NCBI RefSeq assembly: GCF_020073745.1
Contig: NZ_JAIRAU010000047.1
Coordinates: forward strand, 1 to 29,989
Direction: 5' to 3'
Length of the DNA stretch: 29,989 nt
DNA from: Nannocystis pusilla
Lineage (GTDB): Bacteria; Myxococcota_A; Polyangia; Nannocystales; Nannocystaceae
Made by a program: the position numbers and the translations under genes
Part shown: positions 16,253 to 26,882 of the stretch, one piece after another
Layout: each line of letters opens with the position of its first letter
Numbering within the stretch: position 1 is the stretch's first letter
The notes under the pieces: model-generated
What the model saw: only the letters and a program-made list of their open reading frames with translations
Told to the model about the DNA's origin: nothing
The model's database searches: none

Positions 16253-17380
16253 AGGGCAAGCCACGACCTGCACCTCGTAGCTGAACGGCTGGGGCACCCC
16301 GTCCACCTGCACCGTGTAGGTCTTGCCGGCCTCGCTGACCCAGCCCTGCGGCGTCATGGCGATCGCGCTGCTCGAGCCGAACCCGCCCTGCAGGGTCGTC
16401 AGCTTGACCGGCTTCTCGACCCCGTTCTCGCGGATCGTCACCTGGGCCGCGCCGACGTCGATCTCGTCGCTCTGGATCGTCCACCCCGTCTCGTCGACGT
16501 CGGCCCACGGCACCTCGGGCACGTGGATGGCCGCCAGCGGCACGATCCCCGGGGGCGGCCACGCCGTCCACTCGGCGCCCGCGCCGGCCTGGCCGCCGAT
16601 CACCCACATGCACGAGTTGACCGACGTCGAGCCGAGCCCGATCGGCCCCAGCGACCGCGAGAGGATCCACCGCCGGTGGCCGAACGTCGTCGCGTTGCCC
16701 GGGTCGACCATGTAGAGGTCGACCGCGACCACCCCGGGCGTCGCCGAGATGTTGCTGTTCATCGCCGCCTGCGCCCCCTCGGCCGTGTAGCAGGCCCACA
16801 TCACGTCCGGGTCGTGCGACAGCATCCCCTCGGCGTGCATCATCAGCGCGCACTGCTGCGCCTTCGCGTTCAGCCCGGCGTCGTGGCCGACCGGCGGCAG
16901 CCCGGCCAGCCAGCGGTACAGGTTGACCAGCCGCAGCGCGTTGTCGCGGCCGGGCGCCCCGGTGTCGCCGGCCGTGCAGCCCGCCACCGCCCCGCTCCAT
17001 GTCCCCTCGGACATGTCCGATCGGTCCGCCGCCCAGCGCTCGCACACCGCCGCGACCGGGTCGACCGGCTCGCCCGTGGTCTCGCCCGCCGTGCCGGTGC
17101 TGTCCGGCGGCCCGGTGTCGATCGGCCCCGTCGACGTCGACGGCGCGTCCGGCCCCGTGGCGGTCGGCTCCGGCAAGCTCGTGGCGGTCGGCGCCGGCGC
17201 GTCGCCCGTGCTCGTCGTCGCCGCCGTCGTCGTCGGCCCGCTCGCCGCCGTCGCCTCGCTCGCCGCCGTCGCCGTCGAATCTGTACTTTCGGCCATCCCC
17301 GATCCGCGGTAGCAGCTCACCACGAACACGGACGCGAGCGCGACGGCCGCGCGACGATCGACACGACGAGACGGCGACAT
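16250..17380 (-). CDS. CAP/SCP (cysteine-rich secretory protein / PR-1-like) domain lipoprotein with a Thr/Ala/Pro-rich linker and a C-terminal beta domain.
   Basis: The ATG at 17380 gives MSPSRRVDRRAAVALASVFVVSC (lipobox). The CAP core is NALRLVNLYRWLAGLPPV..AQQCALMMHAEGMLSHD. Confidence 0.8.
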   Translation of the reverse strand: MSPSRRVDRRAAVALASVFVVSCYRGSGMAESTDSTATAASEATAASGPTTTAATTSTGDAPAPTATSLPEPTATGPDAPSTSTGPIDTGPPDSTGTAGETTGEPVDPVAAVCERWAADRSDMSEGTWSGAVAGCTAGDTGAPGRDNALRLVNLYRWLAGLPPVGHDAGLNAKAQQCALMMHAEGMLSHDPDVMWACYTAEGAQAAMNSNISATPGVVAVDLYMVDPGNATTFGHRRWILSRSLGPIGLGSTSVNSCMWVIGGQAGAGAEWTAWPPPGIVPLAAIHVPEVPWADVDETGWTIQSDEIDVGAAQVTIRENGVEKPVKLTTLQGGFGSSSAIAMTPQGWVSEAGKTYTVQVDGVPQPFSYEVQVVACP

Positions 17381-17412
17381 CTCGCCCCGAATACGACCGG
17401 CCGGCGCGCCCG

Positions 17413-24136: not shown

Positions 24137-25938
24137 TCGTGACCGAGCTCGAGCGCTTCCTCGCCTTCGCCGGGCGGGCCGTCCCTGCCGCGTTCGGCGC
24201 CGGCCTCGAACCCGCCGCGCTCCGCGCCCACTGGCGCCGCGCCGGCCAAGCGATCGGCGCCCGGCTCGTCCTCGCCTGCGCGCGCGAGCGGCTCGTCGAG
24301 AGTGACCTGCAGGACATGTCCCTTCAGACATGCTCATTGAGCCTCCCGCTGCGGCGCCTGCGGGCCTTCGAGTTGCACGCCGCCGACCTCGACGCCAGCG
24401 ACCTCCCCGAGCTCGCCGAGCTGCTCCCGCGCCTGCTCCCCGCCCTCGCCCCGCCGGTGCGCGCCCGCCTCGCGCGCGAGCTCGGCGACAGCCGCTGGAA
24501 CCTCGCCCTCGCCCGGGTCGCCGCCGACCTGCGCGAACGGACATGCTCCATGGGACACCTCTGGCGCGGCCCGCTCGACCCCGAGAACCTGGTCGTCGAC
24601 GGCCACCCCTGGCACCCCATGAGCAAGACCCGGCTCGGCCTGCGCGCCTGGGAGGACCTGCGCCACGGCCCCGATCAGCTGGCCCAGGCGCCCGTCCACG
24701 CCGTCGACCTCGCCCGCGGCGACGCCCTGCTCGCCGCCGAGGCGGTCTTTGCCGACATCTCGCGCGAGCTGTTCCCCGCCCCCGCGCCCGGGTACGTCCG
24801 CCTGCCCGTCCACGCGCTCCAGCTGCGCCGGCTGCCGCGCCTGCTCGGCCCGCTGTGGGGCGACCGCGTGCGGCCCGTCGCCGTCGCGCCGCGGTCGGCG
24901 CGGGCCCTGCTCAGCCTGCGCACCGTCGCCCTCGCCGTTCCCGCGCTGCACCTCAAGCTCGCCGTCGACATCCACACCACCAGCGCGCGGCGGCAGGTCT
25001 CGCCCGCCTCCGTCCACAACGGCCCGCCGATCGCCGCGCTGCTGCGCCGGATCCAGGCCGCCGATCCGCACACCCGCCGCGGCCTGCGGATCCAGCCCGA
25101 CCTCGCCGCCGCCGGCCTCGACCCGCGCCATGGGCCCGTCGCCGGCCAGCTCGGCGTGGTCGTCCGCCCCGACCTCGCCCCGCTCGCCCGCGAGGTCGCC
25201 CGCGACCCGGCCCCTCCTCTGGGACATGCTCCCAGCGACATGTCCCCGAGCACATTCCCCGTCGAACATGTCCCCGAGGTCATCGTCTGCGCCGCCCTCG
25301 GCGAGCGCCGGCCGGGCGGCGACCTGCTGCTGCGCGAGCTCGCGGCCGCCTACCCGGGCGACCTGCGCGTCCGCCTCGCCGCCTTCTTCGCCGACTACCT
25401 CGACCAGCTCGTCCCGCCGCTGCTGCGCCTCCTCACCGCCCACGGCGTCGCCCTCGAGGCCCACCTGCAGAACGCCCTGCTCGTGCACGCAGGCGGCCGC
25501 CCGCGGGGCTTCCTCGTCCGCGACCTCGGGGGCGTGCGGCTCCACCGCGGCCGCCTCGCCGCCGGCGGTCACGCGCCCGCGCTCGCGTCCGACTCGTTCG
25601 TGATCACGCACGAGCTCGCCGAGGCCCAGGGCAAGCTGATGCACACGCTGGTGCACGCACACCTCGCGGCGGTGATCGGCTGGGTCGACGACGCCGGCGG
25701 CCCCGACCCGGCGCAGCTGTGGCCGGAGGTGCGGCGGATCTTCCAGCACCACCTCGAGCGCTGGTCGACCGAGCCCGCGCTGGCGCGCGCGTGCGCCGAC
25801 GATCGCGCGTTCTTCGGCGCGGCCACCTGCCGCAGCAAGGCGCTGCTCGCCATGCGCATCGACGAGCGCGTCAGCGATTACGCCTATACCGAGGTCGCCA
25901 ACGCGCTCGCCGCCGGGTACTCTTCCCCCGCCGCATGA
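24133..25938 (+). CDS. IucA/IucC-family (NRPS-independent siderophore synthetase-like) adenylating amide/ester ligase.
   Basis: [21 protein letters not shown] (compare PVHPWQ), [34 protein letters not shown] and RDLGGVRL match the family motifs as I remember them. GTGA overlaps the upstream stop. Three in-frame repeat-motif segments lie at 24312-24335, 24538-24557 and 25221-25277. Confidence 0.8.
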
Positions 25939-26882
25939 CCACCCGCCCCCTCGTGTTCGCCACCCCCGAGTACGGCTATCTGCAGGCAGCGCTGTGCGGT
26001 TCGGCCGCGCTCGAGCCCGGGGAGATCGACACCTTCGCCTTCCCCGACGGCGAGCGCTACCTCCGCCTCGTCACCCCGGTGGCCGGCCGCGACGTGGTCC
26101 TGATCGGCGGCAGCATCGACGACGCCGCCGCGCTCACCCTGTTCGACCTCGCGTGCGGTGCGGTGCACTACGGCGCGCGCCGCCTCACCCTCATCATCCC
26201 CTACTACGGCTACGCCACCATGGAGCGGGCGGCCCGGCCCGGCGAGGTCGTCACCGCCAAGACCCGCGCCGCCCTGTTCTCGGCCATCCCGCCGGCCTCC
26301 TACGGCAACCGCGTCATCCTCCTCGACCTCCACGCCGAGGGCATCCCGCACTACTTCGAGGCCGGCCTGGTCGCCACCCACGTCTACGCCAAGCCGGTCA
26401 TCCGCGACATGATCCTCGACATCGCCGACGGCCGACCCTTCGTGCTCGCCTGCACCGACGCCGGCCGCGCCAAGTGGGTCGAGTCGCTGGCCAACGACCT
26501 CGGGGTCACCGCCGCGTTCGTGTTCAAGCGCCGCCACGACGGCGAGCGCACCGAGATCACCGCCATCGACGCCCAGGTCGCCGGCAAGCCGGTCATCCTC
26601 TACGACGACATGATCCGCACCGGCGGCTCGCTGATCGGCGCCGCCCGGGCCTACCAGCGCGCCGGCGCCGTCAGCCTGGCCGCCGTCGCCACCCACGGCG
26701 TGTTCCCCGGCGACGCCCTGCAGCGCCTGCAGGCCACCGGCCTGTTCTCCGCGATCGCCTGCACCGACAGCCACCCGCGCGCCCGCGCCCTCGCCGGCGA
26801 CGACGCCGCCGCCGCGCCGCCGCTGCGCGTGGCCTCGATCGCCCCGTTGCTCGCCCCCTTCCTCGCAGGACATGTCCTGTAG
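25935..26882 (+). CDS. Ribose-phosphate pyrophosphokinase (Prs/PRPP synthetase) family protein, divergent.
   Basis: [17 protein letters not shown] (canonical VIPYFGYARQDR), [30 protein letters not shown] and ATHGVFPG are present; the RQDRK flexible-loop motif is replaced. ATGA overlaps the upstream stop. The C-terminus AGHVL-stop is supplied by GGACATGTCC. Confidence 0.85.

Follow-up and report, generated by a model that had tools for sequence, protein, structure and literature searches.

What is a short palindromic motif doing both between and inside the genes of a myxobacterium? This question is raised by a 29,989-nt stretch of Nannocystis pusilla DNA (contig NZ_JAIRAU010000047.1 of assembly GCF_020073745.1; the whole stretch is called the window below), with a G+C content of about 72%. 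An earlier note on this DNA had compared the copies inside genes with Rickettsia palindromic elements (RPEs), which are mobile elements of roughly 100-150 bp, and had proposed that they insert in frame and supply peptide segments, C-termini, stop codons and even a signal peptide to their host proteins. We find that the motif is the unit of a very short dispersed repeat family specific to Nannocystis and its close uncultured relatives. Its arrays lie mostly outside genes, at gene 3' ends, and most of the coding copies appear to have been written over peptides that were already present.

The sequence GACATGTCC has 19 matches in the window (both strands counted), as against 0.21 expected, and none of 100 shuffles reached this number; with at most one mismatch, GGACATGTCC is matched 15 times where 0.93 matches are expected. 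The repeat unit consists of a symmetric 10-bp palindromic core, RRRCATGYYY, with GGACATGTCC as its ideal form, plus a 4-nt spacer. Counted position by position, 155 units read G G A C A T G T/C C C, with a weak Y-n-n-R tendency in the spacer. Units are joined head to tail, one to six per array, with a period of 14 bp that is strict even among degenerate units: in the five Nannocystis loci described below there are 70 phased pairs at this spacing, versus 0-3 at any other spacing between 10 and 19 bp. In the window such runs place CATG at 3680/3694/3708/3722/3736, 16202/16216/16230/16244, 14525/14539 and 25225/25239/(25253)/25267, and outside the arrays the frequency of CATG is close to the expectation from base composition. 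The longest exact identity between any two array regions of the window is 16 nt, and copies agree only over the 10-bp core and a portion of the spacer. The GGACATGTCC core has stop codons in none of the six frames. Units occur at a density of roughly one per kb. The motif is a short perfect palindrome enriched by an order of magnitude or more, in coding and intergenic DNA alike. Rfam gave no family at gathering thresholds for the window, and none at E<=1 for the region 3300-3800. We found no earlier description of the motif or of a Nannocystis repeat in the searchable literature, where matches to GGACATGTCC come only from p53 half-site papers or primers.

The distribution of the arrays follows the lineage. 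In a protein-anchored genome scan the nearest genome by NadE was that of N. bainbridge (89% identity), whose locus (L001) is collinear with window positions 15192-29922 except for a three-gene island at 21786-24138. An exact-match look-up of the NadE protein retrieved no entry. We compared the window with this locus, with those of N. exedens, N. punicea and a second N. pusilla assembly (L081-L083), and with three uncultured, metagenomic relatives with the same gene order (L084-L086). Arrays phased at 14 bp occupy orthologous sites in all five Nannocystis loci, which, being orthologous, are not independent of each other; in the three uncultured relatives the arrays are fewer and shorter than in Nannocystis. 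Outside this clade, L087, L002, L003 and 14 other high-GC loci contained a single array in 235 kb, versus 0.41 per kb in Nannocystis, and in the more distant Myxococcota loci examined arrays are at background. A scan of viral collections found two perfect units on one contig only, the 59-kb IMG/VR contig IMGVR_UViG_3300005675_000065 (L088), of which 9.1 kb were examined (66% G+C, 7 motif sites). This contig may derive from a phage or prophage whose Nannocystis-like host carries the same repeat.

The arrays are unevenly placed relative to genes. Gene models of the window were set by Pfam matches, codon-position G+C and homology; elsewhere genes were called with a simple codon-usage caller of our own, trained on the window's confident genes, which reproduces the gene map of the window. 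(A first classifier that used the GC phase of the flanks was dropped as too noisy, as it called only 53% of random positions coding.) Metagenome contigs were scanned for two perfect units, which gave 91 stretches, nearly all of 68-76% G+C. Counting arrays of at least two units over about 566 kb of related sequence, we found 57 arrays for 81 convergent spacers, 44 for 269 tandem spacers and 2 for 78 divergent spacers, with a further 46 in coding sequence, which makes up 88% of this DNA. Of 159 such arrays, 46 lie inside called coding sequence, and 13 of 48 do so in the five Nannocystis loci. The contigs behind these statistics were selected because they contain the motif, and in a conservative set the arrays used to find contigs were removed and redundant contigs collapsed (80 loci to 66 clusters). 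In this set an array was present in 16 of 56 convergent regions (2.89 arrays per kb), 12 of 200 tandem regions (0.66 per kb) and 2 of 54 divergent regions (0.17 per kb), while coding sequence had 0.07 per kb (convergent versus divergent, p=5e-4; convergent versus tandem, p=1.6e-5). An array often starts 0-30 nt past a stop codon, or overlaps the stop. In the window, arrays follow the stops of the first gene, a methyltransferase gene, a desaturase/M28 pair, a DUF1579/CAP pair, Prs and NadE, and none of the divergent spacers of the window carries one.

The noncoding arrays of the window illustrate this placement. Just after the stop of the first gene (909), the array at 912..978 consists of a perfect unit (912-921) and three phased units (941-978), with a folding z of -4.6. 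The five-unit array at 3677..3742, to which the first of the CATG runs listed above belongs, lies in a stretch of about 1 kb without clear coding signal (fold z=-3.6). Two perfect units, GGACATGTCC CCGG GGACATGTCC, form a 24-bp perfect palindrome at 14522..14545, between a convergent fatty-acid desaturase gene (+ strand, ending at 14500) and an M28 peptidase gene (- strand, ending at 14565); it can fold into a hairpin with an 11-pair stem and a loop of 4 nt (z=-3.7). A four-unit array (16199..16250) fills the spacer between the convergent genes for DUF1579 (+, ending at 16196) and CAP (-, ending at 16250). The three-unit array at 28898..28935 begins 11 nt past the NadE stop (28887), a position that holds an array in five of the five Nannocystis loci, and the same NadE-Pcm spacer has a two-unit array at 29135..29158 that is nearly identical to a copy inside the Pcm gene. 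The tandem structure of the arrays would account for copy-number change by slippage at fixed sites: the DUF1579/CAP spacer has 4 units in the window versus 10, in three arrays, in N. punicea, and a linker in the IucA/IucC gene, described below, has 4-6. A higher-order tandem triplication of about 60 bp is also present in N. punicea (L082, 1527-1704); besides a motif array, each of its copies contains a duplicate of the final ~25 nt of the CAP gene (CACCTGCACCTCGTCGCTGAA).

Each core reads as its own reverse complement, so that on either strand a pair of neighbouring units can fold into a stem of 10 bp closed by a loop of 4 nt. Folding gave z between -2.0 and -4.7 in seven of the eight arrays folded, the array at the Prs/NadE junction giving -0.7. 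From this hairpin potential, together with the placement after stops and between convergent genes, we infer that the arrays may form bidirectional hairpins at the 3' ends of transcripts, where they would terminate transcription or block 3' exonucleases, in the manner of repetitive extragenic palindromic (REP) sequences. Adjacent units are a direct and an inverted repeat at once, and an RNA hairpin could arise whichever strand is transcribed. This is the explanation that we favour, and we hold it to have about an even chance of being correct. At one metagenomic locus sampled twice (L102 1620-1760 and L108 3441-3580), four two-unit hairpins stand in a row directly after a stop codon, each with a TTCG (UUCG-type) loop and with a period of 37-40 bp, resembling the hairpin stacks of bacterial interspersed mosaic elements (BIMEs). 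A general enrichment of UUCG loops (11 TTCG spacers versus 0 CGAA) was set aside, since it comes mostly from this locus and leaves about 3 independent cases.

Several results weigh against the hairpin explanation. The arms show no covariation: complementarity between adjacent units is 7.18 of 10, versus 7.12 with shuffled partners (p=0.19), and the signal is absent in two datasets, so pairing itself is not demonstrably under selection. The arrays have no U-tract downstream, and classical terminators of stem plus U-tract are not above chance in window positions 10000-29989. Single units, which are the commonest form in genes, form no useful hairpin, yet their cores are conserved. Extra DNA may do least harm between convergent genes, and the enrichment there could be no more than a mark of this. 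Finally, the gradient of conservation documented next, with CATG above the arms and the arms above the spacer, fits recognition by a sequence-specific protein or enzyme at least as well. Taken with the absent covariation, the absent U-tract and the conserved single units, the peak at CATG is no less compatible with a symmetric DNA-binding protein, or with a drive of the uptake-sequence or HIP1 type, than with hairpins.

The coding copies offer a separate view of what is being conserved. The segments had been described as dense in rare codons, and this holds: of the codons whose third base falls in a core, 16 of 42 (38%) end in A or T, versus 90 of 3394 (2.65%) among the other codons of the 8 genes concerned (Fisher p=2e-14). 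The codons GGA, CAT, ACA, TCA, TTG, GAA, CTT and GCT each occur only 2-7 times outside the cores of these genes, and CAT is found 6 times in cores and 4 times among the other 3394 codons. The enrichment arises because the motif is centred on A and T while about 95% of third positions in this genome are G or C. More informative is that these bases persist. Of the 14 core sites at which the window has an A/T third base, 11 keep it in all species, versus 22 of 84 sites outside cores (p=3e-4). In the five-locus Nannocystis alignments, invariant columns make up 97% of CATG, 67% of the arms and 43% of the spacers of arrays in coding sequence, and 72%, 54% and 25%, respectively, of intergenic arrays. 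Plain conservation of synonymous sites (83% versus 78%) is uninformative because G/C third positions are conserved everywhere. The conservation of the A/T third bases and of the CATG columns therefore indicates that the motif is held at the DNA level, and in coding copies the CATG cores are so held against a strong G/C codon bias.

Copies within coding sequence occur in the CAP, TAXI, RCK, TauE, IucA/IucC and Pcm genes, and the methyltransferase and Prs genes end inside arrays. All motif peptides quoted in the earlier note, including DEHVLSAMR, were reproduced in frame; that the copies are always in frame and stop-free is true and says little, as it holds for anything inside a real coding sequence. 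The question is whether the copies add residues, and the note had itself proposed to settle this by aligning orthologs. In such alignments an indel coincides with the motif in one segment of the IucA/IucC gene and in the tails of the methyltransferase and Prs, and not in six other cases; by this comparison three cases add peptide and six overprint existing peptide.

The IucA/IucC-FhuF gene (24139..25938, + strand; GTG start at 24139, 599 aa, as in P0001) encodes a protein similar to nonribosomal-peptide-synthetase-independent siderophore (NIS) synthetases, and three segments of it had been taken for inserts. We aligned 32 orthologs, ranging from 94% to 42% identity. Segment 1 (24312..24335, +, two units) encodes DMSLQTC where outgroups read GDALVLR, without change of length, and forms a confident beta-hairpin in the structure model. 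Segment 2 (24539..24548, +, one unit) encodes RTCS where outgroups read RARL, again without change of length; the relative P0012 has extra units here. Segment 3 (25222..25273, +) contains four units in rotating frames (GHA / DMS / TF / EHV) between the IucA_IucC and FhuF Pfam domains. It is found only in the Nannocystis-like clade and is absent from Enhygromyxa-grade and other relatives; its length among orthologs ranges from about 8 to about 70 aa, with 4 units in the window, 6 in N. bainbridge and in-frame indels of 60 and 12 bp. The AlphaFold2 model (mean predicted local distance difference test score 91.7) has a single low-confidence stretch (block means 51/61), namely residues 351-370, the counterpart of segment 3, in keeping with the surface-loop position that the note had suggested checking. 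A PDB sequence search returned no alignment across this region. On the evidence of the alignment, segment 3 is a true lineage-specific, length-variable insertion. A separate clade (about 50-59% identity) has an independent insertion in this gene, after GERWPG, with DMS/HV peptides and motif units.

The two C-terminal tails had likewise been attributed to the repeat, and here the attribution stands. A four-unit array (10850..10901, fold z=-4.7) takes in the stop codon (10875-10877) and the 9 codons before it in the gene for a truncated Type III Mod-like methyltransferase (9603-10877, +, 424 aa), which ends in VSDMSSEPCP*. Nannocystis forms run about 10 aa into the array (VSDMSSEPCP, EADMSPEACP or PQDMP), while other short forms stop 3-5 aa after GGGGFRYF. 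The protein is 97% identical to one from N. radixulma, and homologs of about 600 aa that are 63-68% identical occur in many phyla. No Res partner is evident alongside, and the gene may be an orphan or a decaying remnant of a restriction-modification system. At the Prs/NadE junction, 2-3 units (26868..26900, +) run from the final codons of Prs (25935-26882) through its stop into the ribosome-binding region of NadE (ATG at 26905). Nearly every base of this array is invariant across the five Nannocystis loci. The tail of Prs, AGHVL*, extends 4-5 residues beyond the outgroups, which end in ..LPFL*.

The remaining copies show a different picture. The CAP lipoprotein gene (16250-17344, -) has two units at 16995..17018 (-) that encode DMSEGTW, with no length change relative to the L085 ortholog, the only outgroup and itself motif-bearing. 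In the RCK-like gene (19922-20710, -) a single unit (20491..20500, -) encodes GHV without an indel, L086 having no motif at this site; about 6 of the 10 codons of the segment are rare, not all of them as had been stated. In the TauE gene (21076-21783, +) the motif segment had been drawn too wide, at 21340-21397: only 21382..21391 (+), in the central loop, is a motif unit. It encodes EHV, and N. bainbridge has a perfect GGACATGTCC in its place. A second CATG, at 21345, belongs to a native Met codon (relatives read G-M-L), and its distance from the first is 40 nt, not 42 nt. The loop is within 1-3 aa of the length in motif-free orthologs, with no coincident indel.

The TAXI-channel gene (17413-19740, -) was the case proposed for a signal peptide supplied by the element. 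A five-unit array (19693..19758, -) indeed extends over the start codon (ATG at 19740) and the signal peptide into the 5' leader, and the signal-peptide DNA of Nannocystis shows the 14-bp pattern (RTW / GPV / GML). From this ATG the gene encodes a 775-aa protein that is 100% identical to an annotated N. pusilla protein. However, a signal peptide of comparable length (roughly 20-25 residues) also precedes the conserved RFG.GSK motif in orthologs from Enhygromyxa, Paraliomyxa, strain ST9 and many metagenomes. Judging from these orthologs, the signal peptide is ancestral, and the array overprints it rather than supplying it.

In Pcm (29227-29934) two units (29347..29370, +) encode EHVLSAM, a segment that had been set apart as native and coincidental. 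This is right for the AMR part, but EHVLS is derived in this lineage: three species and L084 read EAVLA, N. bainbridge EHVLA and the window EHVLS, stepwise toward the motif. The Pcm copy (GAGCATGTCCTTTCGGCCATGCGCC) and the spacer copy at 29135-29158 (CGACCTGTCCTTTCGGACATGCGCC), 200 bp upstream, agree at 22 of 23 bases from TGTCC onward. The copy may represent a short-patch conversion caught in progress.

On the explanation that we favour, the coding copies would be secondary, and we infer three ways in which they could have arisen. A reading frame could run into a 3'-end array until it meets a stop, as in the methyltransferase and Prs tails. An array could grow and shrink in a tolerant linker, where only in-frame variants would survive, as in IucA/IucC segment 3. 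Most commonly, codons in tolerant stretches such as loops or a signal peptide would be rewritten toward the motif, by substitution or by short-patch conversion, with the length unchanged.

A less probable reading is that the motif spreads and is kept by a drive at the DNA level, for example biased short-patch conversion or repair, or uptake bias, that rewrites coding sequence to the fixed 14-bp phased pattern, in which case hundreds of Nannocystis proteins would carry imposed peptides of the DMS, GHV or TCP type, with signal peptides, beta-hairpins and loops overprinted without change of length. If so, this would be a new and tractable case of sequence drive overriding codon bias and amino-acid choice; we know of nothing comparable described in this phylum.

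Recognition by a protein is one alternative. The arrays could be binding sites for an abundant symmetric (dimeric) DNA-binding protein that binds phased palindromes cooperatively, as MetJ does on tandem met-boxes; a nucleoid-associated protein would be one candidate, and gyrase or IHF, as at E. coli REP/BIME sequences, others. With units 14 bp apart, one dimer would be rotated by about 120 degrees relative to the next, so that every third unit (42 bp, 4 helical turns) comes to lie on the same face of the helix. The phasing that stays strict with degenerate units, the peak of conservation at the central CATG and its minimum in the spacer, the missing pairing covariation and the conservation of isolated single units in genes would all be expected of such sites. 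We nevertheless consider this unlikely: no candidate protein was identified, the geometry of 10 plus 4 nt is also exactly that of a stem and tetraloop, and the arrays avoid promoter regions, which argues against a classical transcription factor.

Another alternative is that the motif accumulated by a molecular drive, without selection at individual sites. The drive could consist of biased uptake and recombination, similar to that acting on the uptake signal sequences (USS) of Haemophilus and the DNA uptake sequences (DUS) of Neisseria, or of a methyltransferase site, CATG or RCATGY, with biased short-patch repair, similar to the highly iterated palindrome HIP1 of cyanobacteria. Most coding copies are free of indels, sit at tolerant positions and are kept against codon bias, as such a drive would have it, and the stepwise change at the Pcm site with its near-identical copy upstream suggests the same. 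The density of units and the paired copies at gene ends recall Neisseria and Haemophilus, and the core contains RCATGY, a known restriction-modification recognition sequence. Still, we regard this as quite unlikely. Known uptake sequences lack palindromic symmetry and are not arranged in phased 14-bp arrays with as many as 6 units; CATG outside the arrays is not enriched; and the only methyltransferase of the window is the truncated Type III Mod-like one, whereas Type III enzymes recognise asymmetric sites. An action of this enzyme on the CATG core was set aside for its truncation and its relatedness to proteins of many phyla. To our knowledge, Nannocystis has no known competence and no known CATG methyltransferase.

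The RPE-like mobile element with which we began is very improbable and as a general explanation largely refuted: although segment 3 (lineage-specific, variable in length and in a low-confidence loop), the independent insertion elsewhere in the IucA/IucC gene of a second clade and the two array-derived tails do resemble it, comparison with motif-free orthologs reveals no change of length in six of nine tested cases, the TAXI protein has an ancestral signal peptide, the at most 16 nt shared between copies leave no room for an element of 100-150 bp, the arrays are fixed at orthologous sites in five Nannocystis loci rather than moving, and most are extragenic.

How does the repeat compare with known systems? 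With the REP/BIME sequences of enterobacteria and Pseudomonas it shares short, hairpin-capable palindromes that are dispersed, in high copy and clustered in arrays, and a location in transcribed 3' regions, in convergent and co-directional spacers, with essentially none in divergent promoter regions. REP units, in contrast, are imperfect palindromes of 20-40 nt in alternating orientations, whereas the Nannocystis unit is a 10-bp perfect palindrome repeated in tandem with a 14-bp period; it lacks the GTAG-type head, and a sizeable minority of its copies are in coding sequence, where REPs are strictly extragenic. The window holds no gene for a RAYT (IS200/IS605-like Y1) transposase, no dedicated RAYT search having been made.

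HIP1 (GCGATCGC) is an over-represented cyanobacterial palindrome conserved at orthologous sites, whose function is unknown (PMC5861425, PMC4390886). Like the Nannocystis motif it is a short perfect palindrome, strongly over-represented in genes and spacers, and, like the Nannocystis cores, it is conserved at orthologous sites beyond what codon usage would predict. It differs in sequence and phylum, has no known strictly phased tandem arrays or concentration between convergent genes, and has cognate orphan methyltransferases, of which none is known for the Nannocystis motif.

The uptake sequences are similar in being motifs of ~10 bp at roughly one per kb, with paired copies as gene-end hairpins and with many intragenic copies at tolerant positions, in particular reading frames and without indels; they are asymmetric, though, and form no multi-unit 14-bp arrays, and no uptake bias is known for Nannocystis; the likeness is one of distribution only. 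RPEs, as in-frame palindromic repeats that add peptide in surface or linker regions, resemble segment 3, but not a repeat with so little shared sequence, whose coding copies mostly add no residues and whose main location is extragenic. The short tandemly repeated repetitive (STRR) heptamer arrays of cyanobacteria and the mycobacterial interspersed repetitive units (MIRUs) are also dispersed short tandem repeats whose copy number varies between relatives, and MIRUs lie at gene junctions and keep the reading frame; both differ in unit length and sequence, and the Nannocystis unit is palindromic, with copies within the domains of ordinary enzymes. Since the repeat departs from RPEs in length, from REPs in not being strictly extragenic, from HIP1 in sequence and phylum, and from uptake sequences in symmetry, it belongs to no single family. 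In placement and hairpin potential it is REP/BIME-like, in its intragenic behaviour HIP1- or uptake-like, and only segment 3 and the two tails are RPE-like.

Should the arrays prove to be the main 3'-end signals, they would serve as gene-end markers for annotating the 11-13 Mb, natural-product-rich genomes of Nannocystis, and as a ready bidirectional terminator part for engineering myxobacteria. The coding copies are a clean natural case of a DNA-level constraint that overrides codon bias and amino-acid choice, as seen in rare codons conserved across species, native peptides rewritten without change of length and a linker whose length changes in repeat steps. They are relevant to an old problem, namely what keeps short palindromes so abundant in genomes, HIP1, REP and uptake sequences being examples. 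For annotation, start codons, stops and short tails in Nannocystis genomes are likely to have been shaped by the repeat.

The window also contains a second, unrelated repeat at 3395-3650, roughly 256 nt long, which can fold into one end-to-end hairpin (-154 kcal/mol, z=-3.7) and has terminal inverted repeats at 3435-3452 and 3593-3610. Two copies, closely similar to each other and each about 73% identical to that of the window, are found in N. bainbridge (L001, 14077-14327 and 15191-15445, reverse strand). It has no Rfam match; it looks like a miniature inverted-repeat transposable element or a structured RNA, and in size it resembles an RPE more than the 14-bp arrays do.

The island at the TauE/IucA junction (21786-24138), of slightly lower G+C, encodes a STAND/AAA_16-like ATPase (21842-22981) and two proteins without family match (22974-23516 and 23513-24136). 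It is present in N. punicea and N. pusilla and absent from N. exedens and N. bainbridge, and PADLOC returned no defence-system match for the three genes (21842-24136).

A gene for a sterol reductase of the ERG4/ERG24 family, unusual for bacteria, lies at 5235-6728, consistent with the steroid production known in Nannocystis. Tandem repeats in two further genes probably encode low-complexity linkers of the Thr/Ser/Gly type: the 15-bp unit CGGTGCCCGTCGTGC is present in ~5 in-frame tandem copies at 9080-9167 in the gene for an FG-GAP protein, and an in-frame run of the hexamer GTGCTC occupies 13096-13224 in the gene at 12271-13446. Starting from the stop codon of a beta-propeller gene (1954-3342), a direct duplication of ~21 nt (TGAGCGTGTCCGGCTTGAGCG) with a spacing of 30 bp extends over 3340-3392.

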